From: a virus
Length of the DNA: 64,000 nucleotides
Virus record (IMG/VR): IMGVR_UViG_3300042891_002337
Location: 1-64,000 of that record
Strand: one strand, 5' to 3'
Shown: piece by piece, positions 3,972 through 36,595 of the stretch
Numbering within the stretch: position 1 is the stretch's first letter
How the letters are laid out: every line of letters starts with the position of its first letter
The notes under the pieces: model-generated
What the model saw: the letters and a program-made list of their open reading frames with translations, nothing else
The model's database searches: none
Told to the model about the DNA's origin: nothing
Made by a program: the position numbers and the translations under genes

Positions 3972-4036
3972 GTTGCTTCCTTGTGTTGTGGGGGGAACCA
4001 GGAATCCCCCCATTTTCCATCACATTAGGAATATAA

Positions 4037-4273: not shown

Positions 4274-4317
4274 TCTTTCTCCTTGTCGCTATTCATTATT
4301 GTCAGGTTGAACGATCT

Positions 4318-6092
<1,775 letters not shown>

Positions 6093-6105
6093 GTTGTCTC
6101 CTTTC

Positions 6106-6903: not shown

Positions 6904-6910
6904 TTGTCTC

Positions 6911-7348: not shown

Positions 7349-7381
7349 GTATCATCTTACCAAGTCGGACAGGAATGTTCA
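7329..7381 (-). promoter_or_regulatory. Promoter TGAAC-N17-TAAGAT with 14-bp inverted repeat enclosing the start codon
   Basis: TGTCCGACTTGGTA (7329-7342) / TACCAAGTCGGACA (7358-7371). Confidence 0.75.
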
Positions 7382-7391
7382 ATAGAAAGGA

Positions 7392-16496: not shown

Positions 16497-16985
16497 TTAT
16501 TGCGACTGTCGAACGACAATGCCTGACTGTTTCAGGACTTCAATTCCTGATTCATCGCGGTACTTCTTGTTATAGACAACCTCTCGAATTCCTCCGTTCA
16601 CGATTGCCTTTGCGCAAAGCTTGCAAGGAGAGACCGTGAGGTACATCTTCTTTGGCTTTGGATGATTGAAGTCACACTTGATGAGGGCATTGATCTCTGC
16701 ATGAATGAATCCTGATTGTCCTGGCTCATGAGACTCAACTTCGTTGGGACCGCCCTTGTGGTCTCCGTTGTATCCAACAGCGAGGACCTGAGTGTTGTCT
16801 TCAGTCACAATCACGGCGCCCACTTGGGTACGCGGATCGAGGGATCGACCTGATATGATCCTCGCCATTTCAATCCACACCTGGTCCCAGGTTGGCCTCT
16901 CGGATTCACTCGGATTCTTCAGGTGATCAACAAAATCGCTGTGTGTGGTAACCATCATCAAGTTTCTCGATTCATCCTGTTGCAT
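16497..16985 (-). CDS. dCMP deaminase
   Basis: VGAVIV, GYNG, HAEINAL, SPCKLC; start approximate. Confidence 0.92.
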   Translation of the reverse strand: MQQDESRNLMMVTTHSDFVDHLKNPSESERPTWDQVWIEMARIISGRSLDPRTQVGAVIVTEDNTQVLAVGYNGDHKGGPNEVESHEPGQSGFIHAEINALIKCDFNHPKPKKMYLTVSPCKLCAKAIVNGGIREVVYNKKYRDESGIEVLKQSGIVVRQSQ

Positions 16986-17838: not shown

Positions 17839-18414
17839 TCAGTTCATCGTTTCAGCAACGACAGGATGACAGTTCCAACACATCGGCTCATAACTATCAG
17901 CGCCTCCGACTGAGATCTCTTCCAGTGAGGGAACTCGACGATGCGTGAGAGCAGCATCCTCACCACACATCATGCAAACAGCAGTGCACTTCTCAATTCG
18001 AGTTGCGAAGGGCATCATCCTCTCGATCTCACCGAATGACTTCAGGTTTGCCGAGAGTTCGATGGATGACACGTAGACTGAGATTCCCATACGGAACACT
18101 TCAACGAGTGCATCGGCACAGCCCTCGATCATGAATGCCTCATCGACTGCCACGACTCCGGGCTTGCGATCACGGACATGTTGAAGTATCTGGCTGCCTG
18201 TGCTCACAGGGACGGCGTCCATCCTTGAGCCGGAATGCGTGACAATTGAGCTGTCTGCATACCTGCCATCGATCTCTGGCTTGAAACAGAGGACCTCCGT
18301 ACGTCGAATCCTGTGCCTTTCGACCGCCGCCGTGAGCCGGGTGGTCTTTCCTGACCACATCGGCCCTGTGTAGATTACGAACTCCCTTACCTTATTTCGC
18401 TCGACCATAGTCAT
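17839..18414 (-). CDS. tdk: Thymidine kinase
   Basis: GPMWSGKT, KPEIDGRY, VDEAF, Zn cysteines, VGGADSYEPMC..C. Confidence 0.92.
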   Translation of the reverse strand: MTMVERNKVREFVIYTGPMWSGKTTRLTAAVERHRIRRTEVLCFKPEIDGRYADSSIVTHSGSRMDAVPVSTGSQILQHVRDRKPGVVAVDEAFMIEGCADALVEVFRMGISVYVSSIELSANLKSFGEIERMMPFATRIEKCTAVCMMCGEDAALTHRRVPSLEEISVGGADSYEPMCWNCHPVVAETMN

Positions 18415-18790
18415 CCTCCAGCCTCACAGGACAATTGTCATTCCTGTCGCCGATCTCAATTATGACGCTCTCTTCTAGAGCCTCAATCCTGTATGGACAT
18501 TCTGATTGTACATTAAGGACTTCACCAGGTACAAGGACTTTTGTACTATAAGGATACTTTTCTTCATTTTCTAGGGTCCGAGAATTCCCGTATGTGACCC
18601 TCACACGACCCTTAAGCACAAAGAAGACTTCGTTCTTGACCTTGTGGTACTTGAGACTTGTCCTGTGACCCTCATAGATTGTGATCTGCTTTCCATGAAC
18701 TATCGAATTCGTGTGCCAGTGCCATGTGTATCCCCATGGCTTTTCTTCCTTCACCGACTGTGAAGGCCATGCTTCCTTTGGAGCAGCCAT
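18392..18790 (-). CDS. Cupin, mannose-6-phosphate isomerase type II-like
   Basis: EKPWG, RTSLKYH..KNEVFFVLKG, VRLEDDYGR. Confidence 0.8.
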   Translation of the reverse strand: MAAPKEAWPSQSVKEEKPWGYTWHWHTNSIVHGKQITIYEGHRTSLKYHKVKNEVFFVLKGRVRVTYGNSRTLENEEKYPYSTKVLVPGEVLNVQSECPYRIEALEESVIIEIGDRNDNCPVRLEDDYGRAK

Positions 18791-19788
18791 CAGATCCCCC
18801 ACCAATTCCAAGTTTGCTCAAGTCCGTCATGAATGTTGACCTGCGCCTTGAAGCCAAGCTCTCTCTTGGCTAGGCTAACGTTTGCCATTGTCTTTCTGAC
18901 GTCGCCCTGTCTCCTGGGCGCATGAACAACCTCAATGTTCGGAAACCTCTTCCTAAAGAAGTCCATGATCTGGTTGTTCGTGTATGAGACTGCAGTTCCG
19001 ATATTGATGACCTCACCCCTGAAAGGTTCCTCTCTGGTGGCTGCAAGGATGTTCGCTCTCACTACATCACCGACAAAGACCATGTCCCTAGACTGCTCAC
19101 CGTCGCCGTCAGATCGAAGAGGCTTTCCCTTGTGGATTGCATTGCACCATGCGCTTATTGCAGTTGCGTAGGGTGAGTCTCCTCCCTGCCAGGGACCGTA
19201 CACATTGAAGTACCTGAGACACACAACGTCGAGTCCATGAATCTCAGCAGCGACCTTTGCATACTGCTCAACATAAAGTTTCTGGATTCCGTATGGTGAG
19301 AGTGGGTTGGCCTCACATTTCTCTGAGGTCGGAATCTCTTTCGGGTCGCCGTAGATTGCGCAGCTGGATGAGAAGATCATCCTGACCTTGCTCTTACAGT
19401 CTCTTACAGCCTCAAACAGTGTGAGTGACCTTGTGCAATTCACATCAGTAGTTGCCGCAGGATTGTGAACTGAGTACTCTACCCTTGGGTTTGCCGCGAG
19501 ATGAAAGACCGCATCGTAGAAACCCCTGCGGATTCGAGATAGAATGAACTCATCCTCGATATCACCTTGGACAACAACAACAGTATCATCAGTCCTATTG
19601 TGTTCATGGGTGTCTTCGTACTGCTTTCCGAGGATTCCCATCAGGTTTCGAAGGTTCAGTCCGACAAGGTTTGACACATCACCTGTCGACAAGTCATCGA
19701 CGACATCAACCCTGTGACCGCGGTCAACGAGAGACCTCACAAGGTTTGACCCAATGAAACCACAGCCACCAGTTACAAGCGCTCTCAT
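18790..19788 (-). CDS. NAD-dependent nucleotide-sugar epimerase/dehydratase
   Basis: VTGGCGFIGS, FHLAA, SPYGIQK, LRYFNVYGP, GDGEQSRD. Confidence 0.93.
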   Translation of the reverse strand: MRALVTGGCGFIGSNLVRSLVDRGHRVDVVDDLSTGDVSNLVGLNLRNLMGILGKQYEDTHEHNRTDDTVVVVQGDIEDEFILSRIRRGFYDAVFHLAANPRVEYSVHNPAATTDVNCTRSLTLFEAVRDCKSKVRMIFSSSCAIYGDPKEIPTSEKCEANPLSPYGIQKLYVEQYAKVAAEIHGLDVVCLRYFNVYGPWQGGDSPYATAISAWCNAIHKGKPLRSDGDGEQSRDMVFVGDVVRANILAATREEPFRGEVINIGTAVSYTNNQIMDFFRKRFPNIEVVHAPRRQGDVRKTMANVSLAKRELGFKAQVNIHDGLEQTWNWWGI

Positions 19789-19796
19789 GTTCTCCT

Positions 19797-22700
19797 CTAG
19801 CAATCCAAGTACTTCATCTTTCCGATGTTGGTTGAGATGCCCCAGTTCACCTCATGGTTGACGTTGGCCATCCAGATGGAGTAGGGTACCAGCTTATCAT
19901 TTGAATCTCCCCACACTCGTATCCAGCTGGTCTTTAGAGAGGAGTCTACAACCTTGAGCCGAAGGAAAGTCTTGCCTGTCTTTGTGGACTTCTTTTCGAT
20001 GTGAATCACACAGAACCATGCAATGTCAGAGTTTCCAGGCTCGATCTCTGAGATTGCAGGAATCTCAACCTTTCGAATCTTGCCCATAATCTCTTCGGGG
20101 AACATGATGTGGTGAGGAGCGGCACCTGAGATTTCGGCCTGAAGGGCAACCTTCTCGGTTCGTGTCCAATCCTCGATGCACTGTGTGGATTCGATGAGGG
20201 TCTCAATCACAGGTGGAGCATTGGTCTTTGCTGCCTTCTTGGCACTCATCCCCCATCGTCCCTTGCGCAGGACTCCGTAATTTCCAATGATGATCTCATG
20301 GAGCTGCTTGTGGTTGTTGACCTTGCCGGACTTGAACTCTTCAAGTGAGGTGAATGCCTCCATTCCAAGAAGGGCCTCGAAGCATCGACGGTTGAGCTTT
20401 GAGTGCTTCCAATTTCCTTCCTCATCGAAGAGGAGCTCATCCATGTTTCGGTATGGTCGATTCTCAATGATCTCATCGACTGCCGAATCACCGACACCCT
20501 TCAAGGAGGAGAGAGGTGGGACGAAAGAATCAAGCTCATCTGACCATGACCACTCCTCAGAAGAAGAGTTGATGTCAGGTGGTGAGATCTTGTAGCCCTG
20601 CTGCTTGATCTCGGACATCACCACAGCGAGGCCTTCAACATTTCGATTCTCAGTCTGAAGGCAGGTGGCAAGCCAATCCTTCTCATAGTATGTCATGAGC
20701 CAAGCACCATAGTAGGAGTCGATGGCATATGCAACAGAGTGGGACTTGTTGAAACCGTAAAGTGAGAAGAATGCGATTGTCTCAAAGAGGTCTGTGGCCT
20801 GCTTCTTTGAAAGACCGGACTTTTCAATACATCCGCTGATGAACTTCTTTTCCAGGGCCTCCTTCTCATCGGACTTCTTGCCAAGGGATGTGAGGTCCTT
20901 CTTCACCAGGGTCTTTCGCATCTTGTCAGAGTCACCAGGTGAGAATCCGGCAAGCTTCTGTGCCAGCAACATGAACTGTTCCTGGAAGACGATGAACCCG
21001 CATGTTGGGCCGAGGATCTCCTCGATGACCGGATGGTCGTACTTGATTGCGGCTCGATTCTTCTTGGCCTCGACGTACTTCTTGTGGACGTCGGCCTTCA
21101 GGGGACCAGGACGATAGATTGCCGTGATGGTGGAGAGGTCCACAATGTTCTCAGGTTGAGCTGAAATACAGAACCTCCGTGCGCCATCCGATGTGAACTG
21201 GAAGATGCCTGGCCACCGACCTGCCTGGTAGACGAACTTGAACACCTCAGGATCGTTGGGATCGACATATCGACAGTTCAGCTTATCGTCATAGAACTTC
21301 TTGACTTCCTTGAAGGTGGGCTCCTTTCCGGTCTCACGACGGAGGATTCGACGGATACAGTCCTCAACCATCTGCATTTGCTTCAGGCCAAGGAAGTCGA
21401 ACTTTAGGAAGCCGTTCTCCTCCAGGTTTCGAATGTTGACGCCTTCAGTCCATGGTGTCTGTAGTTCACCGCGAACTGTGATGAGTGGCATGTGCTTCTC
21501 AAGCTCAGGACAGACAAGGACGCCACCGGCATGACGACCAATGGATCGATTCATCATGAAGAGGGCTCGGACCTTGTCCTCGACCTGAGGGTACTTCTCC
21601 ATGAACTCACGGTACCTGGGAGAGTGCTCGAGGCAATCCTCATGCTTGAGGACGAACATGGACTTCTCCATGTTAGGATCTCGGGACTTCTCTGCAACCT
21701 CACGTTCGAGGGGACCTGTGACGGCATTCACCTCATCGAAAGGAATGCCATAGAACTTTGATACGTCCTTCACCAGGGACTTGAGCTTGAGGGTATTGAA
21801 GTTGGAGACTGGGACAACCGATTCCTCACCGAAGATCTCACGTGCTGCATCGATAAGAGCATCACGGTTTCCGACGTCAGTGTCGATGTCAGGCCAACCT
21901 GCACGGTGACGACCAAGGAATCGTTCCCAGAGGAGGTCATATCGCATTGGGTCGACGTGAGTGATTCCAAGGAGGTAGTTGACGAGGGAACCTGCGCCGG
22001 AACCACGACCGGCACCTGGAAGAGTCCGGTTCTCGGCAACCTTGAACACCTTCTGAAGTGTGAGGAAGTAGTTCTCGAAGCCAAGGTGCTTGATGTCACC
22101 AAGCTCGAACTTGGCACGTTCGACGTATTCCTTGTTGGTTGCAAGACCCTCATCAATAAGGGCAGTCTTCACAAGGCTGGTGAGTTGGCTCATTGCAGTG
22201 CTTTCAGATGTGGAGAACGAAGGAAGCTTTGCAGTGTCCTCGAACCAGATCTCCTCACACATCTGCCACGCAATGTCATGTCCACGTTCGATGGAGGAAC
22301 GAACCACATCTTCAGTCCCCTCATAGAACTTGAACTCCTTTCGTCGGAGGAGGTACTCTTCCCACATCTGGTCGGCATTCTTGGGGAAGAGTTCAGCCTT
22401 GATCTGGTCCTTCGTAGGAAGTGGCTTCGGCTCCTCACCAATCTTCATTCGACCAGGCTGAAGCTGGCGATAGATCTCACGGGCTTCCCAAAGGTCAGGA
22501 CCAGGGTAGTGAGCGTCAGAAGTGGTAAGGAGGGGAATTCCTGTTCGCTGGGACAGGTCAATCATGCACCGGTTCGTGAGGTCCTGTGCGCCGAGTCGAT
22601 TGAACTGGATCTCGAGGAAGAAGTTGTCTCGTCCAACACAGTCGGTGAATCGATCTACCATGTTCTGAAGTCGATTGTTGATTCGGTTTCGAACGGTCTC

Positions 22701-23336
22701 ATCATCAACAAGTCGAGGATCGAGCTGGTCAAACTTGAGGTCTGGGAACTCACGGTAGATAATGCCGGACGGATAGCCGCCGACGCATGCTGTGGAGACC
22801 ACCAGGCCTTCACCATGTTCCTTGAGCATGTTGAAGTCGATTCGTGGGAACTTGTAGAACCCGTCCTTGAAGGACTTCTTGACCAGAGTGAAGAGGTTGG
22901 AGAGGCCGACTCGATTCTTGGCAACCACGACAAGGTGGTACCGTCGACTGATGTTGTCGATCTGCTCGGTTCGAGTGTCGTCGGCATCCTCGACAACAAG
23001 GCCAGCCTCTTCCTCATCGTTCTCGGAGGTGCTGTCCTCTGCCGAGATACCCTTCGAAAGGTCGTAGGCCTTCTTCCATTCCTTCAGGTCGGGGACAAAG
23101 TAGAACTCCACACCGTAGAGTTGGCGGAACTTTGCACCCTTGCCCTTCAGCTTCTTGGCATGCGCGTGTGCATGAGCAAGTCCATTGCCATTTCCATGGT
23201 CTGTCAGTGACCAGGAATCGAGGCCATTCTTCAGGCAGAAGTCGATGTGCTCACGAGGTTCGGAGAGTCCATCGAAAGGAGAGAACGTCGAGTGGTTGTG
23301 GATGGAGGCGTAACGATTTGGGGGTAAAAGAATCAT
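19797..23336 (-). CDS. dnaE: DNA polymerase III alpha subunit (family C)
   Basis: PHP HNHSTFS..DG and TDHG; GRGSGAGS; PDIDTD; GRHAGG; KFDFLGL; YGFNKSH. Confidence 0.97.
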   Translation of the reverse strand: MILLPPNRYASIHNHSTFSPFDGLSEPREHIDFCLKNGLDSWSLTDHGNGNGLAHAHAHAKKLKGKGAKFRQLYGVEFYFVPDLKEWKKAYDLSKGISAEDSTSENDEEEAGLVVEDADDTRTEQIDNISRRYHLVVVAKNRVGLSNLFTLVKKSFKDGFYKFPRIDFNMLKEHGEGLVVSTACVGGYPSGIIYREFPDLKFDQLDPRLVDDETVRNRINNRLQNMVDRFTDCVGRDNFFLEIQFNRLGAQDLTNRCMIDLSQRTGIPLLTTSDAHYPGPDLWEAREIYRQLQPGRMKIGEEPKPLPTKDQIKAELFPKNADQMWEEYLLRRKEFKFYEGTEDVVRSSIERGHDIAWQMCEEIWFEDTAKLPSFSTSESTAMSQLTSLVKTALIDEGLATNKEYVERAKFELGDIKHLGFENYFLTLQKVFKVAENRTLPGAGRGSGAGSLVNYLLGITHVDPMRYDLLWERFLGRHRAGWPDIDTDVGNRDALIDAAREIFGEESVVPVSNFNTLKLKSLVKDVSKFYGIPFDEVNAVTGPLEREVAEKSRDPNMEKSMFVLKHEDCLEHSPRYREFMEKYPQVEDKVRALFMMNRSIGRHAGGVLVCPELEKHMPLITVRGELQTPWTEGVNIRNLEENGFLKFDFLGLKQMQMVEDCIRRILRRETGKEPTFKEVKKFYDDKLNCRYVDPNDPEVFKFVYQAGRWPGIFQFTSDGARRFCISAQPENIVDLSTITAIYRPGPLKADVHKKYVEAKKNRAAIKYDHPVIEEILGPTCGFIVFQEQFMLLAQKLAGFSPGDSDKMRKTLVKKDLTSLGKKSDEKEALEKKFISGCIEKSGLSKKQATDLFETIAFFSLYGFNKSHSVAYAIDSYYGAWLMTYYEKDWLATCLQTENRNVEGLAVVMSEIKQQGYKISPPDINSSSEEWSWSDELDSFVPPLSSLKGVGDSAVDEIIENRPYRNMDELLFDEEGNWKHSKLNRRCFEALLGMEAFTSLEEFKSGKVNNHKQLHEIIIGNYGVLRKGRWGMSAKKAAKTNAPPVIETLIESTQCIEDWTRTEKVALQAEISGAAPHHIMFPEEIMGKIRKVEIPAISEIEPGNSDIAWFCVIHIEKKSTKTGKTFLRLKVVDSSLKTSWIRVWGDSNDKLVPYSIWMANVNHEVNWGISTNIGKMKYLDC

Positions 23337-23416: not shown

Positions 23417-23851
23417 CTACTCGATTCGTCCGTAATACGGCTCAAAGAGAGGCTTACCTGCTTCAATGGAACGCTTCAGGTAGTCACGGAGCTCATCGTA
23501 ACTAGTGGTCACCTTCACACCGGACTGTGCCAACATGAGGTTGAAGTTACCTGTGAGGCCCTGGGCAAAGTAGACGATCGGAACGTTTGCGTTGTATGCG
23601 ACGCCTGCCTCGAAGATTGTGCCCATGTCCTTGTCTCGTGTGTTGCAAAGGACGAAGTCGGCAGTTCGAATGTGATCGACATTGCCCTTGAACGTGTCCT
23701 TCTGCACATCAAGTGGTGCATTTGGTGGACAGATGAAGATCTTACGAGGGGATGCCACGTTGAGATCCAGTTCAGCCAGAAGATTCTCAAGGGCTTCTAC
23801 CTCTTCAAGAGCCTTGGGTGTGAACCAACCGGATGCGAGATACACTTTCAT
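23417..23851 (-). CDS. Nucleoside 2-deoxyribosyltransferase / dNMP N-glycosidase family
   Basis: KVYLASGWF, DMGTIFEAGVAY, FNLML. Confidence 0.88.
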   Translation of the reverse strand: MKVYLASGWFTPKALEEVEALENLLAELDLNVASPRKIFICPPNAPLDVQKDTFKGNVDHIRTADFVLCNTRDKDMGTIFEAGVAYNANVPIVYFAQGLTGNFNLMLAQSGVKVTTSYDELRDYLKRSIEAGKPLFEPYYGRIE

Positions 23852-23860
23852 TTTGACTCC

Positions 23861-24454
23861 TCAGTAATTGAGATTGATATTGTTCGATTCGATTCCAAAC
23901 TGTTCAGCACAGGAGCAGCAGGAATCAACTAGCTCCTTTGGTCCTGCAACAAACACCTGTGTTCCGATGGGAAACTCCTTCACGTTGAGCGGTGTGAAAG
24001 GAGTGTCCGGCCTACCCAGCTTCTTTGTGTTCCATTCAACGACTGTTTCAATTCCCTTCATTTCGCGAATCGATTCAATGCCAGAAGAAAGGGGATGTCC
24101 GCCACGGGTGTAGGAAACAAACCAAGTCCTCAGGTTGCGCTGTGACCTGTATTTGAGGAGGTTGTATCCCACACCCGTGGCGGTGCCGCCACAAACAATG
24201 ACGGCATCCCATGAATCATAAACAGGAAATCCCTTTCCAAGGGGTCCTGCTACATTCACTTCCGTTCCCTCCGGTAGGTCTAGAGGACCTCCGTAGCGGG
24301 TAAGCACCGAAGCAGAATTTTCATCCGAATCGGCTATAGCGAAGAATCGACCGTTGACATTGATGCACTGACCTGGTGAGGCTCCGTCACAGGGCATCTC
24401 AAACTTGACGACAATCATGTCGTCGCCTCTCAAATTTTCAATAACCTTTGCCAT
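23861..24454 (-). CDS. Ferredoxin-reductase-like FAD/NAD(P)-binding protein (PyrK-like, no 2Fe-2S tail)
   Basis: PGQ, GPLGKGF, VCGGT, VFVAGP. Confidence 0.65.
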   Translation of the reverse strand: MAKVIENLRGDDMIVVKFEMPCDGASPGQCINVNGRFFAIADSDENSASVLTRYGGPLDLPEGTEVNVAGPLGKGFPVYDSWDAVIVCGGTATGVGYNLLKYRSQRNLRTWFVSYTRGGHPLSSGIESIREMKGIETVVEWNTKKLGRPDTPFTPLNVKEFPIGTQVFVAGPKELVDSCCSCAEQFGIESNNINLNY

Positions 24455-24455
24455 A

Positions 24456-24983
24456 CTACACCCAAGCCTTCAGGAGGCCCTGCATTGTTTCTCGCATCTC
24501 GCGTTCCAGGTCCTCATCATCGACATTCACAAGCACCGTCTTGCACTTGGTCCACTTTGTGAACTTCATGTAGAGATCGTGAATCTTGGTGATGTTGTCA
24601 TTGATGTTGTCATACTCATCCTTGACGCCTGCATACGAGGATCGATGAGGAATGACGATGACAGTTCCAAGACGAGAGTGACGTTCATCAAGCTGACGAA
24701 GGAGCTCAAAGTCAGTCTGCCTTCCGAGGGCTTGGGAGTATATCCACTCGGAAGGCCAGGCACGATCGAGGATTACCGATGAGCCGGAGGACTCGAGGTA
24801 CGAGGTGAAGTAAGTGTCCACATAGCGGATCGCATTGAGAAAGTAGCTTGGGTCGCTGAGAAAGTACTTGTGCTCGTCCGTGTTCTTGAAGTACGGAATG
24901 CCAAGGCGACGACTGAGCTCCTTGGCCTGCTCGGTCTTCCCGCAGCGATCAGGACCCTCGTAGATGATGATCCGCTGTGGCAT
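24456..24983 (-). CDS. Thymidylate kinase-like dNMP kinase
   Basis: EGPDRCGKT P-loop; ILDRAWPSEWIY. Confidence 0.88.
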   Translation of the reverse strand: MPQRIIIYEGPDRCGKTEQAKELSRRLGIPYFKNTDEHKYFLSDPSYFLNAIRYVDTYFTSYLESSGSSVILDRAWPSEWIYSQALGRQTDFELLRQLDERHSRLGTVIVIPHRSSYAGVKDEYDNINDNITKIHDLYMKFTKWTKCKTVLVNVDDEDLEREMRETMQGLLKAWV

Positions 24984-25909
24984 TACTTCCCCTCGACCTT
25001 ACGGATTCGTGCCTCATACCCGATGGTCTTCCAGTCCTCGATCATCTCCTTCTCACCTGGAAAGAGGAGGTGGTCCGGAAGCTCCTGTAGCTCGAAGAAC
25101 CATGCGGACTTATCGAACTTCCAGTCAGGCTGGTTCTCAGGATTCGAGAGGGAGGGAATGTGCTTGCCTGCGGAAGGAGCACGACCGGTGTTGCCGAAGA
25201 CCTTGTCGGTATTGAGGCAGGTCTTGTTGGCGCCCATCGCCTCGAGCTTGGTGAGGAGTGTGGACCAACCGGAACCCTTCACCTTCTCAGAACCATCCTC
25301 ATTGAGGTGTGCCTTGATGAGCTCATGGCGAATGAGGCGACCAATGAGGTTGAGCTCATCGGTAAGACCGTTCTCACAACGACGGGCAAAGTAACCACGA
25401 AGAGCCATGAAGTTGACAACACAGACGAGGTTAGTCTGCTGGCCATGGAATGTCATGTAACGGCAGTCCTGAGGAGGAACACCTGCCGAAACCATCTCAT
25501 CATAAAGAGCCTGAGACTCACGAACGATACTGGCAGCACGATCACCAAACACAGGATGCTCGAAGATGTTCTTAGGAATGGTGACATTGTGCTCGATCGC
25601 TTCAGGCATCTGGGATGTGACGCAATAAGCCCAACCAACTCGACCACGAGTGAACTGTGCAAGGCCGACTCGACTGATTCCTTCCACACGAATCTGGAAG
25701 TTGAGGGCCTCCTGCGGAACAGGAAGTGCAGTACCGGCAAGGACCTCCTTGCAGGCCTCGATGTGCTTCGGATTCGTGGGATCGTACTCCTGATTGCGAA
25801 GAGAGTACCAGGTCTCACGGTACCAGTTCCAGAACATTTGGAACGGGTTCTCGATTCCAGAGTCGAGAATGGTTACCTTGATGTTGCCGAAGCCATTCGA
25901 AATGCTCAC
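24983..25909 (-). CDS. Divergent ThyX-fold flavoenzyme
   Basis: VEGISRVGLAQFTRGR..., GVPPQDCRY, TNLVCVVN...YFARR; canonical RHR and SxRY altered. Confidence 0.8.
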   Translation of the reverse strand: MSISNGFGNIKVTILDSGIENPFQMFWNWYRETWYSLRNQEYDPTNPKHIEACKEVLAGTALPVPQEALNFQIRVEGISRVGLAQFTRGRVGWAYCVTSQMPEAIEHNVTIPKNIFEHPVFGDRAASIVRESQALYDEMVSAGVPPQDCRYMTFHGQQTNLVCVVNFMALRGYFARRCENGLTDELNLIGRLIRHELIKAHLNEDGSEKVKGSGWSTLLTKLEAMGANKTCLNTDKVFGNTGRAPSAGKHIPSLSNPENQPDWKFDKSAWFFELQELPDHLLFPGEKEMIEDWKTIGYEARIRKVEGK

Positions 25910-26847
25910 TTTACCTCCAGATTGTTGACTGAGTTTAGAAAATCTTGATGTGTGTCGTAGATATCAATGTTCTTCACATTGACCAACTGTTCATTGTAAG
26001 TCTTCTGTGGAGACAGTACACGAATCCCATGCGATGCATACTCAAGGGCATGCTTTGGTGAATCGTCCATTGCAAACATGACCTTCCCCTTCAGGAAGTA
26101 ATCCTGCTGCGTCAGCCACCTGTACTTCTCAGGGCTGAATCCGATTCCATCGACCTCAAAGCCGTGACGCTCGAGCCACGCATATGTGGCGCACTCACAC
26201 ATTGGATTCTCCTGTGGGCGCGCCGTGAGGATCTGGATCCAGAATCCCCTCTTTCGCATTGCATTGAGCTCATCTCGAAGCCAGACAAGAGGTTCGAGTT
26301 CCATCATGCCGCCAGCACTGATAAAGTCCTCAAACACGTTTGTGGGATCAATTCCAGCCTGAAGGATCGCATCGGTGTTGTAGTACTCCTTGCCATGCAA
26401 GTTAGTCTTCACACCCTTCGATTCGAGCCATTCATAGAACTTTGTTCGAAAGTCTGCAACGACGTCGTCGACATCAACAATGACAACAGGTTCACCTGAC
26501 CATTTTCGGGAAAGGAGCCTGTGACGAATGTTGAGCTGGGAGTCACGAAGTTGCATGGCAGCCTCGAGGTCCTCAGAAGAGAAGTCCCATGTGTTGAGTA
26601 CTGCGGTGATGTAACGCACAACATCCACAGACTCAAACAGCATCTTGTTTCTGTTTATGAAACGATCTTCTGTGTGGTGACGAAAGTTGATGCTGTTTGT
26701 GAGTTGACCGACCTCATTGTGAAGTGAGAGGAGGAGCGTCTTTGTGAGCTCCAGCTTCTTTTCATCATCACGACCAAACTGGTCCAGCAACTCACCAAAC
26801 GAACGTTGTGCGGACAGGATTCCCTGTAGAGTCTTGAATTCCTTCAT
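25906..26847 (-). CDS. All-alpha NTP pyrophosphatase (MazG/dUTPase-like) fused to HAD 5'-nucleotidase-like domain
   Basis: N-term HNEVGQL...FESVDV; C-term VDVDDVVAD, LTARP, MDDSP. Confidence 0.75.
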   Translation of the reverse strand: MKEFKTLQGILSAQRSFGELLDQFGRDDEKKLELTKTLLLSLHNEVGQLTNSINFRHHTEDRFINRNKMLFESVDVVRYITAVLNTWDFSSEDLEAAMQLRDSQLNIRHRLLSRKWSGEPVVIVDVDDVVADFRTKFYEWLESKGVKTNLHGKEYYNTDAILQAGIDPTNVFEDFISAGGMMELEPLVWLRDELNAMRKRGFWIQILTARPQENPMCECATYAWLERHGFEVDGIGFSPEKYRWLTQQDYFLKGKVMFAMDDSPKHALEYASHGIRVLSPQKTYNEQLVNVKNIDIYDTHQDFLNSVNNLEVK

Positions 26848-26852
26848 GATTC

Positions 26853-26880
26853 ACTGTAATCCTTGAGATATGGGTTTTCA
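26853..26880 (-). promoter_or_regulatory. Promoter TGAAA-N17-TACAGT, 5 nt before ATG
   Basis: TGAAC-class variant heading the 26847-23417 operon. Confidence 0.55.
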
Positions 26881-29576: not shown

Positions 29577-30505
29577 ACGGTGTCGCCAACAGATGCAACA
29601 GAGTGAGAAAATCCCCAATAGACGACTTCACCACCTGATGATATTGTCGAAAGGAAAGTCGAAGTTGGCCCATCATAGATGCCAGCCAAATTTCCCACAG
29701 TGTAAAATGGCGTATCATTCCTTGCCATCGCGATTGGAACAGGTGCATACTTGCTTGCGTCCCACTTACCGAAACCAGAAGTGTTTGTTGGTGTCTTAGA
29801 AGGTGTGCAGAAGGTGTCGATCTTCTCCCAAGTTGAAGATCCTGATACATACGCCCCTGCATGAAAGTCACCATTGTTCTCATTATGATTCAAAAAGTAT
29901 TGATTCATTCTGAAGTTGGCATTCATGGCAAACTGCCACGACTGATTGATAATTCCATATCGATAGCCGTCAGACTCAAAGTATTGACCAGTCCCATTCA
30001 GCACAGCACCTGCAATCATTGATCTTTGATTTGCATTTGATGAACCTTCAATCATTGCTGCAAAACCTTTGTCAGATGCCCAGGCATGGATTTTTGTTGA
30101 GTTTGTTGCAGATGTTGTGCTCCAGGCAGTGAGACCTGCAAAGCCCGCTGATTGAAATGGAGACGAAGCATACCAGTTTGTGTATGCACCATCAGCGTTT
30201 GTAGCAAGGCCAACAAGCACTCTTGTCGCAGAATAAGTGTCTGGCGCCAACATTGTAGGACTTGGGCTCGGAGTTCCTGAGTCCTGTGATGCAACTACAA
30301 GCCTGAAGTTTCTGGGCCCAAATGTGTTCGAATAGATTGCCTGTGATCCTGTAGTGGAATCTTTCGTCCAGGACAGAACTGTGTTCGGAACAGCGTTCCC
30401 GTAGTAATCGGTTCCTGCTGACAGAAGATTGTACAGGGCCGTTATGAAACCGTTGTTATCCGGAGGAGTGACATTCGCAGATCCCATGTAGTAACGGGTT
30501 GGCAT
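29555..30505 (-). CDS. Putative virion/tail-fibre-associated protein
   Basis: S/T/G/N-rich, aromatic-rich; coupled to the fibre gene. Confidence 0.6.
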   Translation of the reverse strand: MPTRYYMGSANVTPPDNNGFITALYNLLSAGTDYYGNAVPNTVLSWTKDSTTGSQAIYSNTFGPRNFRLVVASQDSGTPSPSPTMLAPDTYSATRVLVGLATNADGAYTNWYASSPFQSAGFAGLTAWSTTSATNSTKIHAWASDKGFAAMIEGSSNANQRSMIAGAVLNGTGQYFESDGYRYGIINQSWQFAMNANFRMNQYFLNHNENNGDFHAGAYVSGSSTWEKIDTFCTPSKTPTNTSGFGKWDASKYAPVPIAMARNDTPFYTVGNLAGIYDGPTSTFLSTISSGGEVVYWGFSHSVASVGDTVWLSKTY

Positions 30506-31797
30506 TAGACTATCTCGATGGTTGAAGATACGACTGACTGTTCGGAGTGAGCAACGTCGACAGTCATTGGGGTCACAGCAATAGCAGCGCCGAATACCCA
30601 CGCAAGGGAATTATTTTGCCATCCGAGAACTCTACCGTCACGATAGCCAGATGTCGGTGGCTCAACACCAGCAAATGAACCTGCGTTATTGTACTGAACA
30701 GAGTTCGTGGAGCCTGCGGGAGAACCGCCGCCGGTCGATGAGATCGTCACAGCTCCGTTCGAACCAGTTACTACATTTACATTCGTGCCAGCAATAATGT
30801 ACGAAGTACCGTCCGAGAGCTTTGTAAGTGAACCTGACATCTTAGTGACGGTGATGCTTCCGCCTGTGATGGACACATTGTTTGAGTTCTGTGTTGATAG
30901 AGTTCCGAGGCCAAGGTTGGTTCGAGCAGTCGAAGCATCAGAAGCCCCTGTACCACCGTCTGCAACTGCAAGATCTGTGATTCCTGTTACAGATCCACCT
31001 GTGATAGAAACATTTGAGGCTGCCTGTGTGGCAATTGTTCCTAATCCCAGGTTAGACCTCGCTGTTGTAGCGTCTGAAGCGCCTGTTCCTCCATCTGCGA
31101 TAGCGAGGTCTGTGATTCCTGTGATTGAACCACCTGTGATTGTGACGCTGTTTGATGCCTGTGTAGAGATTGTGCCCAGTCCAAGATTAGACCTTGCGGT
31201 TGCAGCATCTGAGGCGCCTGTCCCACCATCAGCAACAGCAAGATCTGTTATGCCTGCAATGGAGCCGCCTGTTATAGAAACGCTGTTCGACGCCTGTGTG
31301 GCAATTGTTCCGAGACCCAGGTTGGTCCTTGCGGTTGCAGCATCTGTGGCGCCTGTACCGCCATTAGAAACAGCAACAGGTGAAGACAGAGAAATTGTGA
31401 CTGAGCTTCCTGCTCCTCCGTCACTTATTGTAATCCCTGTCCCCTGAGTCAGGACCCTTTCCTGTGTTAATGTTGCGTCAGTCGCAAGGGTTACGTACCT
31501 TGCAGTAGTGGGTGCACCGCCACCGCCTCCACCTCCACCCACAGAATATGCATTCCCCTCGGCATCGTAGATTGTGCCTGAAACCGTCAGGTTACCCTTT
31601 ATGATGCTGCTTCCTGAAGCAACCAAGCTTCCGGATACAAAAGCATTCCCAGTGATGTTGATGCTGGATGTCTTAAAACCAGATATGCCCACATACAGGT
31701 CATGTGGGCCAACAACTCGAAGTATTTCCCTGCTTCTGTCGTCTGAGACTGGTATGAAAGACTCAGTCAGGGCAGTTCTAGCGTCTATGCTGCCCAT
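30505..31797 (-). CDS. Tail-fibre-like protein with tandem repeats
   Basis: GGTGA..A.TAR.NLGLG repeats; SVQYNNAGSFAG. Confidence 0.8.
   Translation of the reverse strand: MGSIDARTALTESFIPVSDDRSREILRVVGPHDLYVGISGFKTSSINITGNAFVSGSLVASGSSIIKGNLTVSGTIYDAEGNAYSVGGGGGGGGAPTTARYVTLATDATLTQERVLTQGTGITISDGGAGSSVTISLSSPVAVSNGGTGATDAATARTNLGLGTIATQASNSVSITGGSIAGITDLAVADGGTGASDAATARSNLGLGTISTQASNSVTITGGSITGITDLAIADGGTGASDATTARSNLGLGTIATQAASNVSITGGSVTGITDLAVADGGTGASDASTARTNLGLGTLSTQNSNNVSITGGSITVTKMSGSLTKLSDGTSYIIAGTNVNVVTGSNGAVTISSTGGGSPAGSTNSVQYNNAGSFAGVEPPTSGYRDGRVLGWQNNSLAWVFGAAIAVTPMTVDVAHSEQSVVSSTIEIV
30838..31377 (-). repeat. Four tandem 135-bp (45-aa) intragenic repeats
   Basis: LAVADGGTGASDAATARSNLGLGTISTQASNSVTITGGSITGITD-like unit x4. 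Confidence 0.9.
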
Positions 31798-32044: not shown

Positions 32045-32440
32045 TCAATCGTCCGGCCAAGAATCATCGAGCTCCACAGGCGTAGGTACCTGAGCTGAAG
32101 CATACCTCTCAGACCTCTCATTGAGAAAATTGACTATCGATGCAATCGTCCTTTCCCTTTCCTCAAGAAGCTTAGGACGAGAGTGGACCCTGTCAAGCTC
32201 TCCCAATGCCCAGTCCTCGATCCTCTTGAATGCCTCCTCATAGAGAGCAACAAGATCTTCCTTCTTTATCTTCGAAGCCTCGGACCTCACCTCACCAATA
32301 AAGCCTGTGACGGTTCGAATGAGCCTGTCGGACGCAGGTAGGTCACGATTGGACTCTACAATCTCAGACTGCGCAAGCTCCCTGGTCTGTGACAATATTG
32401 CAATGAGTTCCCTTACTTCTTCAAGTCTCTCAGTACCCAT
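32045..32440 (-). CDS. Hypothetical protein
   Basis: GAGG RBS; helical. Confidence 0.65.
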   Translation of the reverse strand: MGTERLEEVRELIAILSQTRELAQSEIVESNRDLPASDRLIRTVTGFIGEVRSEASKIKKEDLVALYEEAFKRIEDWALGELDRVHSRPKLLEERERTIASIVNFLNERSERYASAQVPTPVELDDSWPDD

Positions 32441-32825
32441 TCTCAATCCTCTCAAGAATCTTCTTGTGCTTTGAAACGTATGCCTTCAGGAGGTCCTCTT
32501 CCGTGAATCCGGTCAGGATCAGGACTGAGAGGAAATAATTGAAGCCATCAACGACCTCTTCAAGGAAGTGATCCTCATTGAACTGAGGTAGGTCGGTCTG
32601 CCGATGTGGCTTTGCATTCTTCAGTTCCTGAAGCGCCTCGAACATCTCCTCGACTCCGCGAAGGACAATGTCCCTTGCCATTAGCTGGGATGACTTCTTG
32701 GTGAGGTCCATGGGCCATCCCTCACTGTAACATCCTGTCTTTTCAGTGAGCCTCTTCATGTACTCCTCACGGAGTTCAAAGAGAAGCTTCAGGCCATCAG
32801 TTGGTTGTTGTGTCGTTGAGCTCAT
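32430..32825 (-). CDS. Dimeric all-alpha dUTPase/MazG-like pyrophosphatase
   Basis: EEMFEAL..LKN.KPH, FLEEVVDGFNY. Confidence 0.8.
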   Translation of the reverse strand: MSSTTQQPTDGLKLLFELREEYMKRLTEKTGCYSEGWPMDLTKKSSQLMARDIVLRGVEEMFEALQELKNAKPHRQTDLPQFNEDHFLEEVVDGFNYFLSVLILTGFTEEDLLKAYVSKHKKILERIENGY

Positions 32826-33030
32826 TTGCCTTCTGCAGCAGGAGTTGGATGCCTTCTTCGAAACCCTTGATAAACTCAGGATCAGGATCAAGTGTTCCAC
32901 TGTCATTAGTGTGAAGTACTAAAGTGCGGAGGTTATCCACAACGTCTGTGCCTGTGAGGATTGCCATCTGGACGAGACGTGAGATCTGAATGATCGTTGC
33001 GTCTGAAAGCTTGTATGTTGTCATTGTCAC
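32797..33030 (-). CDS. Hypothetical protein
   Basis: GGAG RBS; promoter TAAAC-N17-TACAAT at 33040-33067. Confidence 0.65.
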   Translation of the reverse strand: MTMTTYKLSDATIIQISRLVQMAILTGTDVVDNLRTLVLHTNDSGTLDPDPEFIKGFEEGIQLLLQKANELNDTTTN

Positions 33031-33064: not shown

Positions 33065-33853
33065 TTATAGCTGGACTCGAGGACACCACCATGTCGTTCG
33101 TCCATCCTTAGTCTCCTGACAGATGACTTGTTCACCGTTCGGATCGGTCTTTCGACCGTAAACGAGCATTGAGTGGTTTCCCTCTTCACCGTCGAAACCC
33201 TTGTATGTGAGTATCGTGGATCCGCCATTCTCGTAAGCAGTCTTGATAACCGACCTCACAGACTCATGAAGGAATCGAAGCTGGTCATCTGTGCACTGTG
33301 ATACGGTTCGATGAGGACTAAGCTTGGCAAGCCAGAGTGCGTCCGCCTTCAGATAATTTCCAACCCCTGAAACGACGCCCTGGTTCATTAGAGCCTCAGC
33401 CAAGGTAAACTTAGGGTGCTTTCGAAGGCTCTCAATGAATGCTTCCGGCTTCACATCCTCATTCAACATGTCCGGACCAAGTGACTTCAGTTTGTTCTCA
33501 AGTCCCTTTCTGTCTGTGAATTTGATGGTGCCGAAGTTGCGTGGATCGTTGAAGAAGAGGTTGCCCTCAGAAGTTTCGAACTTTACTCTGGCATTCCTCT
33601 CGCGGTTTGACCAGGAGCCAGACATACCAAGCGTGTTGAAGATAACTGTGTCGGTATCCGTGAGCCAGTAGATGAACTTGCCCTTGCACTTCACATCGAT
33701 GATGTTGATCGGAAACTGCACATCTGAGATTCCTTCGATCGGCTTCTTGAGGTATCGACCGGACAGGGGTGTGACTGATAGAAGCTGCACTCCTTGTCCG
33801 ATGAAGTTTCCAATTGAACGTACGAAACCTGCTACCTCGGGTCCCTCAGGCAT
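33065..33853 (-). CDS. Fpg/Nei-family DNA glycosylase
   Basis: MPEGPEV, KGK, LGMSG, DPRNFG, LGPD, SGVGNY, GRTTWWCP. Confidence 0.93.
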   Translation of the reverse strand: MPEGPEVAGFVRSIGNFIGQGVQLLSVTPLSGRYLKKPIEGISDVQFPINIIDVKCKGKFIYWLTDTDTVIFNTLGMSGSWSNRERNARVKFETSEGNLFFNDPRNFGTIKFTDRKGLENKLKSLGPDMLNEDVKPEAFIESLRKHPKFTLAEALMNQGVVSGVGNYLKADALWLAKLSPHRTVSQCTDDQLRFLHESVRSVIKTAYENGGSTILTYKGFDGEEGNHSMLVYGRKTDPNGEQVICQETKDGRTTWWCPRVQL

Positions 33854-34289
33854 TTGCAAACTCCTCGCTGTGATTATTCTTCAGGAAGTTGTGATAATCT
33901 GTGAGTGCGTGGTCCTTTGGTTCGACGCTTCGCCAATCACCAAGGACAAAGATTCGATAGGCATCGGATGCATACTTTCCAACACCATGAAGCTGATTGA
34001 CATCAGACCACTTTCCCTCGTGGTACTGAGCAGACATTCTCTTGAGAGTCTGGGTGCGCTTCTTTTGCATGCCCAGAGTCTTGATCATTTCCTCAAGTTC
34101 TGAGTCATCAGCTTCGGACATGGACTTTGCATTTGGCCAGCGCTGGAACATCTTTTCAACGACTGGTTCCATTTGCTTCCTCGTCGTGAGGTTGAGACAG
34201 AGGCAGCAAACAAGAATCTTCCAGGGATCAGGCCAATAACGTTCCTGGATAAGACCGAACTTTGGGGGATGCCACACGTTTGCCTCCAT
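33846..34289 (-). CDS. MBD4-like HhH-GPD DNA glycosylase
   Basis: LIQE...DPWK, LNLT, LHGVGKYASDAYRIF, DHALTDY. Confidence 0.88.
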   Translation of the reverse strand: MEANVWHPPKFGLIQERYWPDPWKILVCCLCLNLTTRKQMEPVVEKMFQRWPNAKSMSEADDSELEEMIKTLGMQKKRTQTLKRMSAQYHEGKWSDVNQLHGVGKYASDAYRIFVLGDWRSVEPKDHALTDYHNFLKNNHSEEFANA

Positions 34290-34323: not shown

Positions 34324-35103
34324 TCAGTAGGGAGTTCCGTGTCTTACATGTCCCATGATATCTTCTATGACTGTCTCGGTCTCATCGTGGTCATTAACGC
34401 TGAAAGCGCGGCCGTACTTTTTGAGGGCTTCATAGATCTCATAGTCGTTTCCATTTGCCTGACATCTGTCACCCACAAACCAGACAGTCTCATCTGGAAA
34501 GTGATTGAGAGCGTATGTCTTGTCCCAACCTACCGGGTAGATATCGAACGAGGTCGATCCGCCAAGCTTTGCAATAAGTGGGGTTCGAATTGTCATGAGC
34601 CGAAGCTTCAACAGGGAGAGGATGCCAAGCCTAAAGTCGTTTCTTGCGTCGAAACTCTCAAACCAGGTCCTGCTTGAGCGATCTGCTTCCCTACCAATCG
34701 GACACCAATTGACCATTGAGCTCCGCGAGGAGACAAAGTTTCCAGTCAGGGGAAGGTCGCGAACATTATCCATGACCTCACGCTGCATGGTATTGAGAAT
34801 GAGGTGAAGTTCACGCCACTCCTGTCCCAGGTGATTCATCATAGACTTTGGGACTGCCTGAGCCTGCCAGTGACCATTGACAAACTTCCAATGCTCAGTG
34901 CCATTGCACGGCAGCGCTTCCACGCCATGCTCAAATGCCTCAAGCGGAACCTGCTCCTTGACATAGTCAAGTGCAGAACCTGTTACAATTCCAACCCTTG
35001 CAAACGCAGAGAGTTCAGTAAGCTTTCGTAGGTTCTTTTGAGTGATTCCTTGGCGCGGTGGTGTTAGTGTGCCATCAAGATCAAAGAGTACAACGTCTCG
35101 CAT
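34324..35103 (-). CDS. HAD phosphomannomutase (PMM/Sec53 type)
   Basis: LFDLDGTLT.PR, NWCPIGR, SFDIYPVGWDKTYAL, GD....GNDYEI. Confidence 0.88.
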   Translation of the reverse strand: MRDVVLFDLDGTLTPPRQGITQKNLRKLTELSAFARVGIVTGSALDYVKEQVPLEAFEHGVEALPCNGTEHWKFVNGHWQAQAVPKSMMNHLGQEWRELHLILNTMQREVMDNVRDLPLTGNFVSSRSSMVNWCPIGREADRSSRTWFESFDARNDFRLGILSLLKLRLMTIRTPLIAKLGGSTSFDIYPVGWDKTYALNHFPDETVWFVGDRCQANGNDYEIYEALKKYGRAFSVNDHDETETVIEDIMGHVRHGTPY

Positions 35104-35735
35104 TAGTATCCAAATGCCTCGATCGTGTGCTTGAAAGGATTGTCTTCAATGCTTCGAACAAGATCTAACATCTTCTCGGCGATCTCCCTCACTTCTTTCT
35201 GAGCATCGGGCTTCATTCGTAGTCCAAGGAAGTGATTGAAGGATCGCCAGTTGAACATGATGTCCATCGTGATCTGATTGCCGTAAGGGAGGTAGAACCT
35301 CGCAGACTCCTTGGCACGCTTGCGATCCATGCCTCCGTCTACAAGGCGCTGGAGTGTGTCATGGTAGCGCATGATTGCGTCCTCCATGAATGCGATGTAC
35401 TTTGCCTTCTCAACGGTGGGCCAATCATCAGGAACAACATACTTGTCATCCTTCAGTTCCTTGTACCGTGCAGACTCACCATTGATGGAGACGCCGACCC
35501 TGTGCTTCAGGAGGTGAATGTGAGTAGCGGTATCAACGGTCACAAGGAAGTGAATCGAGCTCTTCTCAAAAGGAGTCTCATGTCCATTCTCAGCAAGCAT
35601 CTTGAGAAGCTGTGGGATCCTCTTCATCTTGTCGGGATTCAAGTCTCGGCTTGTGCTTGTCCATGCTGAGAGAGCGTGGACTTCGTCCCCACCGTACCAA
35701 CCGACCAATTCTACCTTGTTGTCCTGAAATGGCAT
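35103..35735 (-). CDS. thyX: Flavin-dependent thymidylate synthase
   Basis: GHETPFE, KHRVGVSINGESARY, ARFYLP, AQKEVR. Confidence 0.93.
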   Translation of the reverse strand: MPFQDNKVELVGWYGGDEVHALSAWTSTSRDLNPDKMKRIPQLLKMLAENGHETPFEKSSIHFLVTVDTATHIHLLKHRVGVSINGESARYKELKDDKYVVPDDWPTVEKAKYIAFMEDAIMRYHDTLQRLVDGGMDRKRAKESARFYLPYGNQITMDIMFNWRSFNHFLGLRMKPDAQKEVREIAEKMLDLVRSIEDNPFKHTIEAFGY

Positions 35736-36543: not shown

Positions 36544-36595
36544 TGCATACTCCGGTTGAGTTAGATTGCGAATTGCCTTTTCGAAGTCTTCTTCT

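Follow-up and report, generated by a model that had tools for sequence, protein, structure and literature searches.

A ThyX-Fold Protein and Its Kinase in an Operon Upstream of dnaE

The window analyzed here covers positions 1 to 64,000 of a 75.6-kb viral contig from IMG/VR (IMGVR_UViG_3300042891_002337), rated 22% complete by CheckV and therefore a piece of a giant phage with a genome of roughly 300 kb. Directly upstream of its dnaE gene lies a cassette of five genes, one of which encodes a divergent ThyX-fold protein, here called ThyXL, and the next a kinase resembling thymidylate kinase (TMPK). We regard it as probable, with ample room for doubt, that ThyXL plays, on a ThyX fold, the part taken elsewhere by ThyA-type enzymes that hydroxymethylate or hydroxylate C5 of pyrimidines, and that it forms with this kinase the core of a pre-replicative route to a non-canonical pyrimidine deoxynucleoside triphosphate (dNTP) for the phage polymerase, the other three cassette products being accessory to the pathway. 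The genes concerned are the following:

25906-26847, minus strand: HAD 5'-nucleotidase with a weakly MazG-like head, 313 residues (Pfam, PHROG)
24983-25909, minus strand: ThyXL, ThyX-fold protein, 308 residues (Pfam Thy1, AlphaFold2, Foldseek)
24456-24983, minus strand: TMPK-like P-loop kinase, 175 residues (phrog_761, profile searches)
23861-24454, minus strand: FNR-fold reductase, 197 residues (AlphaFold2 and Foldseek)
23417-23851, minus strand: nucleoside 2-deoxyribosyltransferase (NDT), 144 residues (PF05014)
19797-23336, minus strand: DnaE (DNA polymerase III alpha), directly downstream of the cassette
35103-35735, minus strand: canonical ThyX, 210 residues, with KHR...SARY motifs (TIGR02170, above cut-off)

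The five cassette open reading frames (ORFs) run head to tail on the same strand. In gene order, the first two junctions are overlaps of 4 bases and 1 base and the next two are gaps of 1 base and 9 bases, after which 80 bases lead to dnaE. The five-gene operon directly upstream of dnaE that had been proposed from the letters of this DNA alone (the sequence-only reading) is thus present, with no overlap or gap above 9 bases. A promoter and terminator consensus scan of the cassette gave no signal exceeding shuffled controls. In one metatranscriptome run, six contigs of 151-293 nt fall on the cassette stretch: one runs from the start of dnaE into the 3' end of the NDT gene, one lies within each of the genes for NDT, reductase, and kinase, and the remaining two map to upstream genes (small ORFs and a phosphoesterase gene). 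DNA carry-over is possible, hence these contigs are no proof of transcription.

Fold and Active-Site Residues of ThyXL

ThyXL matches the Pfam Thy1 family (PF02511) over residues 59-199 with 56.2 bits (cut-off 24.8), and it stays below the TIGR02170 thyX equivalog cut-off (34.8 vs. 87.9). The separate canonical ThyX that the sequence-only reading had placed elsewhere in the window scores 108.7 against the same cut-off and is thus confirmed. An AlphaFold2 model of ThyXL, built from a 113-sequence alignment, reaches a mean pLDDT of 97.1 and a pTM of 0.94 across all 308 residues, and every significant Foldseek match of this model in the PDB is a ThyX or PolB (TM-score at most 0.76 on the target), which confirms the ThyX fold at high confidence. 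Searched by sequence, the PDB gave no match to the close-family ThyXL profile, and a wider profile was required.

In a profile alignment of ThyXL to Thermotoga maritima ThyX, whose numbering is used for the canonical enzyme, Q75, R78, R80, S88, R147, and R174 are kept (Q85, R88, R90, S99, R150, and R177 of ThyXL), and H53, H79, R90, and Y91 are lost, their places being taken by L62, G89, M101, and P102. In terms of motifs, TRGR replaces RHR, SQMP replaces SxRY, and ALP replaces GH, with Ser88 and both arginines of RHR retained. These changes of RHR, SxRY, and GH had been noticed from the sequence alone and are verified by the alignment; RGR and SQMP hardly vary, if at all, across 117 members of the family. 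ThyXL also has about 45 additional N-terminal residues and a conserved C-terminal extension with the motif DxVFGNTGR, which measures ~105-110 residues past the Thy1 match rather than the about 90 first estimated.

In canonical ThyX, Tyr91 and Ser88 are strictly conserved and critical (PMC11940539). Tyr91 forms a hydrogen bond to His53 and is adjacent to Arg90, it is the proposed acid that expels water from the flavin carbinolamine, and the Y91F substitution slows flavin oxidation ~1000-fold (PMC11940539). By the alignment, what ThyXL appears to have lost is this His53-Tyr91-Arg90 set, which includes the folate-stacking His53 and is tied to folate-dependent methylene transfer, and what it appears to retain are the arginines holding the nucleotide and FAD phosphates. 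From this loss and this retention, ordinary folate-dependent reductive methylation by ThyXL looks unlikely, and binding of a flavin and a pyrimidine nucleotide plausible. The genomes fit with a protein other than an ordinary dTMP-synthase paralog, as claimed earlier: besides the disappearance of residues essential in canonical ThyX, a canonical ThyX occurs alongside ThyXL in four of the five large contigs, one of them 318 kb long and 93% complete. Whole-contig searches found no ThyA homolog in the large ThyXL contigs.

A Constrained Family from Uncultured Phages

A word-indexed search returned 159 ThyXL clusters. Among the 122 of these that were listed, most proteins are 300-316 residues long and share 44-99% identity over their full length, and the sources are exclusively metagenomes, with contigs of at most 241 kb; the source annotation of all members is "hypothetical protein." When 1.84 billion representatives were searched exhaustively with HMMER, distant long forms with 28-40% identity were added, as well as further non-canonical ThyX types (RTR/GGRD and RxR/CTGD among them). 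In a midpoint-rooted FastTree phylogeny of a subsample of 142 sequences, the RGR/SQMP proteins form one clade (support 0.87-0.92), nested in a 49-member clade of long forms (0.995) and a 90-member non-canonical clade (0.96), outside which all canonical RHR/SxRY sequences fall. The RGR-type ThyX is therefore separate from every canonical ThyX in the tree.

Isolates gave nothing comparable. The cassette had no blastn match in isolate phages, and tblastn against 50,697 isolate phage records returned only partial matches of ThyXL (at most 55% coverage) to ordinary ThyX and none for the kinase; a distant long-form member (P0140) likewise had no tblastn match in isolate phages. The best full-length structural matches to ThyXL in BFVD are likewise from uncultured phages. 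The large clade in which ThyXL falls is thus known from uncultured phages alone, and the phage carrying the cassette studied here recurs in lake-water metagenomes (22 runs). Two apparent relatives were set aside: the papers on SP-15, YerA41, and Carin-5 name "thymidylate synthase homologs" only, and the SP-15 ThyX-fold protein matches poorly (query TM-score 0.45); a weak Thy1 match in contig G007 (326 residues) shows no relation to ThyXL by BLASTP.

In an alignment of 18 diverse members, RGR, SQMP, PPQDxRY, RxENGLTDELN, and the C-terminal DxVFGNTGR show little or no variation, and about 60 positions do not vary among members that are 44-77% identical. Such invariance of the replacement residues and of a new C-terminal motif points, as far as sequences can tell, to a constrained, working enzyme. 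It also bears on the idea that ThyXL has no catalytic activity and instead binds nucleotide or flavin as a regulator or scaffold of a dNTP-synthesis complex, for which the loss of several catalytic residues could speak. Against this stand the conservation just described, a very confident and compact structural model, and the new extension motif, whose conservation argues for a remodeled rather than a decayed site; we consider a dead protein very improbable.

The Kinase Is the Only Constant Neighbor of ThyXL

Linkage was assessed by tblastn with the window proteins around 16 IMG/VR loci that the ThyXL alignment had retrieved, within 6- to 10-kb flanks, on contigs that are often fragmentary. The kinase gene lies immediately downstream of ThyXL in 15 of the 15 loci having downstream DNA, so that the coupling of ThyXL to a dedicated kinase holds throughout. 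The other companions are less regular: an NDT gene was found within 10 kb in 13/16 loci, DnaE downstream of the cassette in 11/16, the MazG-like/HAD gene upstream of ThyXL in 10/16, and the FNR-like reductase in 6/15. NDT is present in all five large contigs, at distances from ThyXL of up to 61 kb, and a whole-contig search of a 257-kb contig, 76% complete, did not find the MazG-like/HAD gene. Because the kinase is invariable and the others are patchy or distant, ThyXL and the kinase are the obligate unit, and the other three genes often accompany them but can be dispensed with; the notion of five genes acting as one tight unit has to be given up. A dedicated kinase linked in this way is a classic signature of a pre-replicative non-canonical nucleotide pathway.

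Some lineages add genes of their own to these loci. In L013 (7711-8088), L014 (4451-4828), and L015 (5119-5496), the second gene downstream of the ThyXL-kinase pair encodes an S-adenosylmethionine decarboxylase (PF02675, 91 bits), and NDT and MazG-like/HAD genes are not nearby in this sub-lineage. A glutamine-synthetase-like gene (Gln-synt_N and Gln-synt_C) lies between NDT and ThyXL in L010 (8923-9939) and L009 (8922-9935). Both were considered as core genes and rejected as lineage-specific. Elsewhere, insertions of ~0.9-1.2 kb separate ThyXL from the kinase or split dnaE (L017:11005-11784 and L003:15415-16383, with gaps in L007, L008, L012, L018, and L006). The two insertions examined encode nuclease-like proteins, one of TnsA-like/endonuclease I type and one with ROS/MucR and DUF559, and they are probably homing endonuclease genes.

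Relatives of the Kinase Adjoin Putative Cytosine-Modification Genes

The cassette kinase matches phrog_761 ("thymidylate kinase") at 1.2e-12, its profile touches YorR and TMPK in the PDB, and it carries the signature DRAWPSEW(I/V)YS. In a reverse search with the kinase alignment, every locus with a close kinase has ThyXL directly upstream, and seven loci without ThyXL have kinases that are 36-45% identical and share an invariant DRAWPSEWVYS block. In L040 (30.7-kb contig; 3392-7554), the gene order is DnaE, a GFO/MocA oxidoreductase, a short-chain dehydrogenase/reductase, a glycosyltransferase-like protein, the kinase, and a ThyA homolog of the MilA/T4 cytosine-hydroxymethylase type. In this uncultured phage with a DnaE polymerase, the locus is a candidate cassette for glycosyl-hydroxymethylcytosine. 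In L032-L035, L038, and L041 (L035:4908-8646), the kinase follows an RGP-family protein (UDP-arabinopyranose mutase family; PF03214, 125 bits) and precedes a glycosyltransferase-like one, and the L035 and L038 contigs, the two searched, encode a MilA-like ThyA homolog elsewhere (L049 and L048). These phages may decorate a modified cytosine with a pentose or arabinose. An IMP dehydrogenase/GMP-reductase gene comes after the triad in L035.

The sister ThyA homologs match the CMP 5-hydroxymethylase MilA best (168.6 vs. 88 bits for thymidylate synthase in one case, 101.8 vs. 55 in another); they have an aspartate at the position of Escherichia coli Asn177 and retain Asp169. An aspartate at the former position is the cytosine-specific state, and Asp169 serves as a diagnostic between hydroxymethyl and hydroxy synthases (PMC13326640). 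By this diagnostic, the retained Asp169 would place the sister homologs nearer to the 5-hydroxymethyl than to the 5-hydroxy synthases. A glycosyltransferase, a TMPK-like kinase, and a synthase also follow one another in this order in the isolates RB69 (p045-p048), DLP3 (078-080), and RL38J1 (214-216) (PMC13326640). The L040 kinase itself weakly matches a "thymidylate kinase" beside a phosphoheptose-isomerase gene in JS98/Marfa-type phages (E ~6e-3), which is a lead only.

A further module, in L042/L043 (38.6-kb contig, 80% complete; L042:3741-6882), consists of NDT, a 121-residue ORF, a ThyX, a TylF-type O-methyltransferase, and a fusion of the kinase with a uracil-DNA glycosylase-like domain. 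Its ThyX is of the non-canonical RQR/CTGD type (Thy1, 83.9 bits), and the O-methyltransferase suggests a hydroxyl-bearing product. Judged by such neighborhoods, the kinase family would travel with enzymes that functionalize C5 of pyrimidine nucleotides and may be of either thymidylate-synthase fold. The neighborhood analysis thus adds to the sequence-only reading that the kinase is the sole invariable neighbor of ThyXL and that its relatives adjoin cytosine-hydroxymethylase homologs and glycosyltransferases.

This last point helps to weigh another explanation, in which ThyXL still makes dTMP, as a second isozyme that works with a different reductant (the FNR-like protein) or C1 donor, and the cassette is an ordinary module of dTTP supply or salvage comprising nucleotidase, NDT, thymidine kinase, TMP kinase, and ThyX. 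Every cassette gene does come from a family of normal thymidylate metabolism, the kinase is TMPK-like, the phosphate- and uracil-binding arginines and Ser88 are retained, and ThyX can reportedly use free formaldehyde (PMC8316439). However, the strictly conserved Tyr91 is gone together with Arg90 and His53, the same genomes carry a canonical ThyX, ThyXL falls under the equivalog cut-off, and homologous kinases adjoin cytosine hydroxymethylases and glycosyltransferases. We therefore hold a dTMP synthase to be unlikely, without dismissing it.

Nucleotidase, Reductase, and Deoxyribosyltransferase

The C-terminal domain of the 313-residue protein matches the NT5C/HAD family with 28.4 bits (Pfam cut-off 24.8); its DxD, T, K, and DD motifs are intact and invariant in eight homologs, and on these motifs it is a clear candidate for an NT5C-type HAD 5'(3')-deoxyribonucleotidase. 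The N-terminal all-alpha domain matches dUTPase_2/MazG below threshold (19.0 vs. 22.9 bits; phrog_173, E 5.8e-4), and its only conserved acidic residues are in H43-x-E45 and E72-x-x-D75, that is, ExxD is kept and the first acidic motif is degenerate (HxE). Of the MazG/dUTPase-HAD fusion first proposed, the 5'-nucleotidase part therefore stands, whereas the MazG/dUTPase label is tentative. This N-terminal domain matches positions 5-102 of the dimeric dUTPase profile, and small proteins at 32430-32906 of the window and in L010 (6753-7130) match only its C-terminal third (positions 108-162); in L010 these two genes lie side by side and overlap. The two fragments may represent a split or rearranged dimeric dUTPase.

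The AlphaFold2 model of the 197-residue protein (pLDDT 94.5) has a minimal FNR fold, with an FAD beta-barrel and an NAD Rossmann fold, and its Foldseek matches are cytochrome b5 reductase (Cbr1), PyrK, flavohemoglobin reductase, and NfnI (query TM-scores 0.71-0.82, E down to 2e-11). The motifs GPxGxGF and GGT-x-x-G (GGTG-type) are present; in the RxYS flavin motif, (R/K)xx(S/G/T) is conserved and the tyrosine is not. The homologs in six of 15 related loci are 31-49% identical. From its modeled fold, the protein is predicted to be a minimal FNR-fold NAD(P)H:flavin oxidoreductase, with an accessory role. The NDT matches PF05014 with 48.9 bits (cut-off 28.8), and the catalytic glutamate of DxGTxxE is found in DMGTIFEAG, aligned with DTGTAWELG of PDB 6EVS. 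We take the aspartate of DxGTxxE to mark the cassette NDT as nucleoside-type, not as the nucleotide-type of Rcl/DNPH1.

These enzymes would also suit a product that is not destined for DNA: ThyXL, NDT, and nucleotidase could make or recycle a free modified base or nucleoside, in the manner of MilA/MilB or the bacimethrin genes, or could rebalance deoxynucleoside pools from degraded host DNA. A nucleoside-type NDT and a HAD 5'-nucleotidase fit with this, and NDT is found again beside a non-canonical ThyX and an O-methyltransferase in the unrelated 38.6-kb phage. Sets of hydroxymethylase, N-glycosidase, O-methyltransferase, and kinase typify nucleoside-antibiotic pathways (MilA/MilB, Bcm), and the set of the 38.6-kb phage resembles these. 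Yet the invariable partner of ThyXL is a nucleoside monophosphate kinase and not NDT, the cassette lies within the replication module by dnaE in 11/16 loci, and no transporter or self-resistance gene was seen. A product made for purposes other than DNA thus appears quite improbable, if less so than a dead ThyXL.

A Proposed Route to a Modified Pyrimidine

If ThyXL is indeed a counterpart of the ThyA-type C5-modifying enzymes, a pyrimidine deoxynucleoside monophosphate (dNMP), dCMP or dUMP, would bind above the flavin via R80, R150, R177, and Ser99 (numbers as proposed) and be modified at C5. Hydroxylation, by reduced flavin and O2, or hydroxymethylation would be the leading options, simple reductive methylation being unlikely. 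The TMPK-like kinase would convert the product to the diphosphate and a host NDP kinase to the triphosphate, which the phage DnaE would incorporate. The canonical ThyX would keep dTTP supplied together with two further enzymes of the window, as td, tk, and cd do in T4:

17839-18414, minus strand: thymidine kinase, TK1 type
about 16572-16970, minus strand: dCMP deaminase

The FNR-fold protein, where present, would re-reduce the flavin, and the MazG-like/HAD nucleotidase, NDT, and thymidine kinase would remove or reuse, at the nucleoside level, the canonical nucleotide that competes with the modified one. For a dCTPase or dTTPase that removes the competing dNTP, the candidate is the MazG/dUTPase_2-like domain, whose likeness is sub-threshold (19.0 vs. 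22.9 bits).

Hydroxylation is consistent with the lost folate-linked residues, the reductase in the operon, the O-methyltransferase of L042, and the precedent of a ThyA-fold flavin hydroxylase; hydroxymethylation would call for a remodeled folate site. One may go further and picture ThyXL as a folate-independent flavin monooxygenase of ThyX fold that yields 5-hydroxy-dCMP or 5-hydroxy-dUMP, with the FNR-like protein recharging the flavin and the kinase passing the product on toward DNA, a proposal that we advance only tentatively and hold to be unlikely. As to the base, the analogy with the T4-like gene set (true thymidylate synthase, thymidine kinase, dCMP deaminase, paralog, kinase, and possible dNTPase) and with the sister cassettes points to cytosine.

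Several points weigh against the proposed route. Arg177 corresponds to T. maritima R174, presumably the uracil contact in ThyX, and would suit uracil better than cytosine; ThyX chemistry activates uracil by polarization, with no cysteine, and points the same way (PMC11940539). This line disagrees with the one drawn from the gene set and the sister cassettes, which suggest cytosine. Within ThyXL, the positions aligned with the flavin contacts R165, N169, and H178 are altered. A phage dNMP kinase beside replication genes is by itself no proof of a modified nucleotide, and the fused 5'-nucleotidase would break down the dNMP substrate. The surroundings of ThyXL yielded no glycosyltransferase and no other post-replicative modifier: searches of the window and of the ThyXL loci gave no homologs of the sister-locus glycosyltransferase, RGP, or O-methyltransferase, and PHROG scans of the unassigned window ORFs gave no transferase. 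Illumina lake metagenomes yield normal assemblies of the phage DNA at 10-15x, and therefore give no sign of bulky hypermodification. Finally, it is from observed folds, motifs, linkage, and distribution that we infer every chemical step, the base, and its fate in DNA.

Genes around the Cassette

The window also encodes a tail sheath, DnaB, RecA, a 5'-3' exonuclease, ribonucleotide reductase, ClpP, GroEL, and DnaE. Two sugar-nucleotide genes lie within the replication module, a phosphomannomutase gene (34324-35103) directly downstream of the canonical ThyX and a GDP-mannose 4,6-dehydratase gene (18790-19803) directly downstream of dnaE; no transferase tying them to DNA was found in the window. 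A Fpg/Nei-family DNA glycosylase (33065-33859; L010:5704-6513) is kept in the replication module of ThyXL phages. This family removes oxidized pyrimidines and purines, which is of note for a phage that may carry a modified pyrimidine. A tail-fiber-like repeat protein (30505-31797; several PHROG tail-fiber families) is encoded amid replication and nucleotide genes, and a GroEL-type chaperonin, an Fe/Mn superoxide dismutase, and ClpP are encoded at 4318-5907, 13374-14075, and 35941-36705, respectively.

Relation to Known Systems

If the proposed route is correct, both unrelated thymidylate-synthase folds have been recruited for DNA base modification, and an unrecognized modified base is predicted in abundant freshwater and marine giant phages, a matter relevant to the evasion of restriction and CRISPR and to the "dark matter" of viromes. 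A new flavoenzyme chemistry would then also be on offer for the synthesis of modified nucleotides. Should the flavin monooxygenase proposal hold as well, 5-hydroxypyrimidine DNA would have a second origin, independent of the first and mirroring the folate-to-flavin switch of ThyA homologs, and the product would be O-methylated or otherwise decorated in related phages. The kinase signature DRAWPSEW(I/V)YS may mark pyrimidine-modification cassettes of either fold.

T-even phages replace cytosine by means of the dCMP hydroxymethylase gp42, the dNMP kinase gp1, and the dCTPase gp56 of T4, along with td, tk, and cd. The ThyXL genome likewise has a thymidylate-synthase-family paralog besides the true synthase, a dedicated kinase, a possible NTP pyrophosphatase, a thymidine kinase, and a dCMP deaminase. 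It differs in that the ThyXL fold is unrelated, the kinase is TMPK-like and not gp1-like, nucleotidase and NDT are added, and no glycosyltransferase was found near ThyXL. To our knowledge, all characterized pre-replicative modified-pyrimidine pathways of phages use ThyA-fold enzymes, and no phage enzyme of ThyX fold in such a role turned up in literature searches.

In RB69, DLP3, and RL38J1, a ThyA homolog (D169N) makes 5-hydroxy-dCMP using flavin and O2, and not folate (Lee et al. 2026, PMC13326640). These phages share with ours the clustering of a thymidylate-synthase-superfamily enzyme with a TMPK/YorR-like kinase, but the enzyme there has the ThyA fold and ThyXL the ThyX fold, the similarity of the kinase to those of the isolates is marginal, and no arabinose or glycosyl genes lie beside ThyXL.

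With the flavin-dependent thymidylate synthases (ThyX/FDTS, EC 2.1.1.148; T. maritima TM0449 and Mycobacterium tuberculosis ThyX), ThyXL has in common the fold, the PF02511 match, and the equivalents of Q75, R78, R80, S88, R147, and R174. It departs from them by Leu, Gly, Met, and Pro in place of His53, His79, Arg90, and Tyr91, by its terminal extensions, its separate clade, and its position under the TIGR02170 equivalog cut-off, and it coexists with a canonical ThyX. The sole characterized neofunctionalized ThyX paralog is PolB, the UMP/dUMP C5-methylase of polyoxin biosynthesis (PMC5954106; PDB 4P5A/4P5B). Like ThyXL, PolB is a second ThyX-fold gene product beside a housekeeping copy, with altered substrate use, and it is among the Foldseek matches of ThyXL (rank 36). 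Unlike ThyXL, it belongs to a bacterial antibiotic cluster and still methylates, it has neither a kinase partner nor a C-terminal extension of the ThyXL type, and the two proteins are ~11% identical. Pre-replicative pyrimidine modification itself is known, and what the analysis adds is the kinase-centered link from ThyXL to ThyA-type cytosine-modification cassettes.

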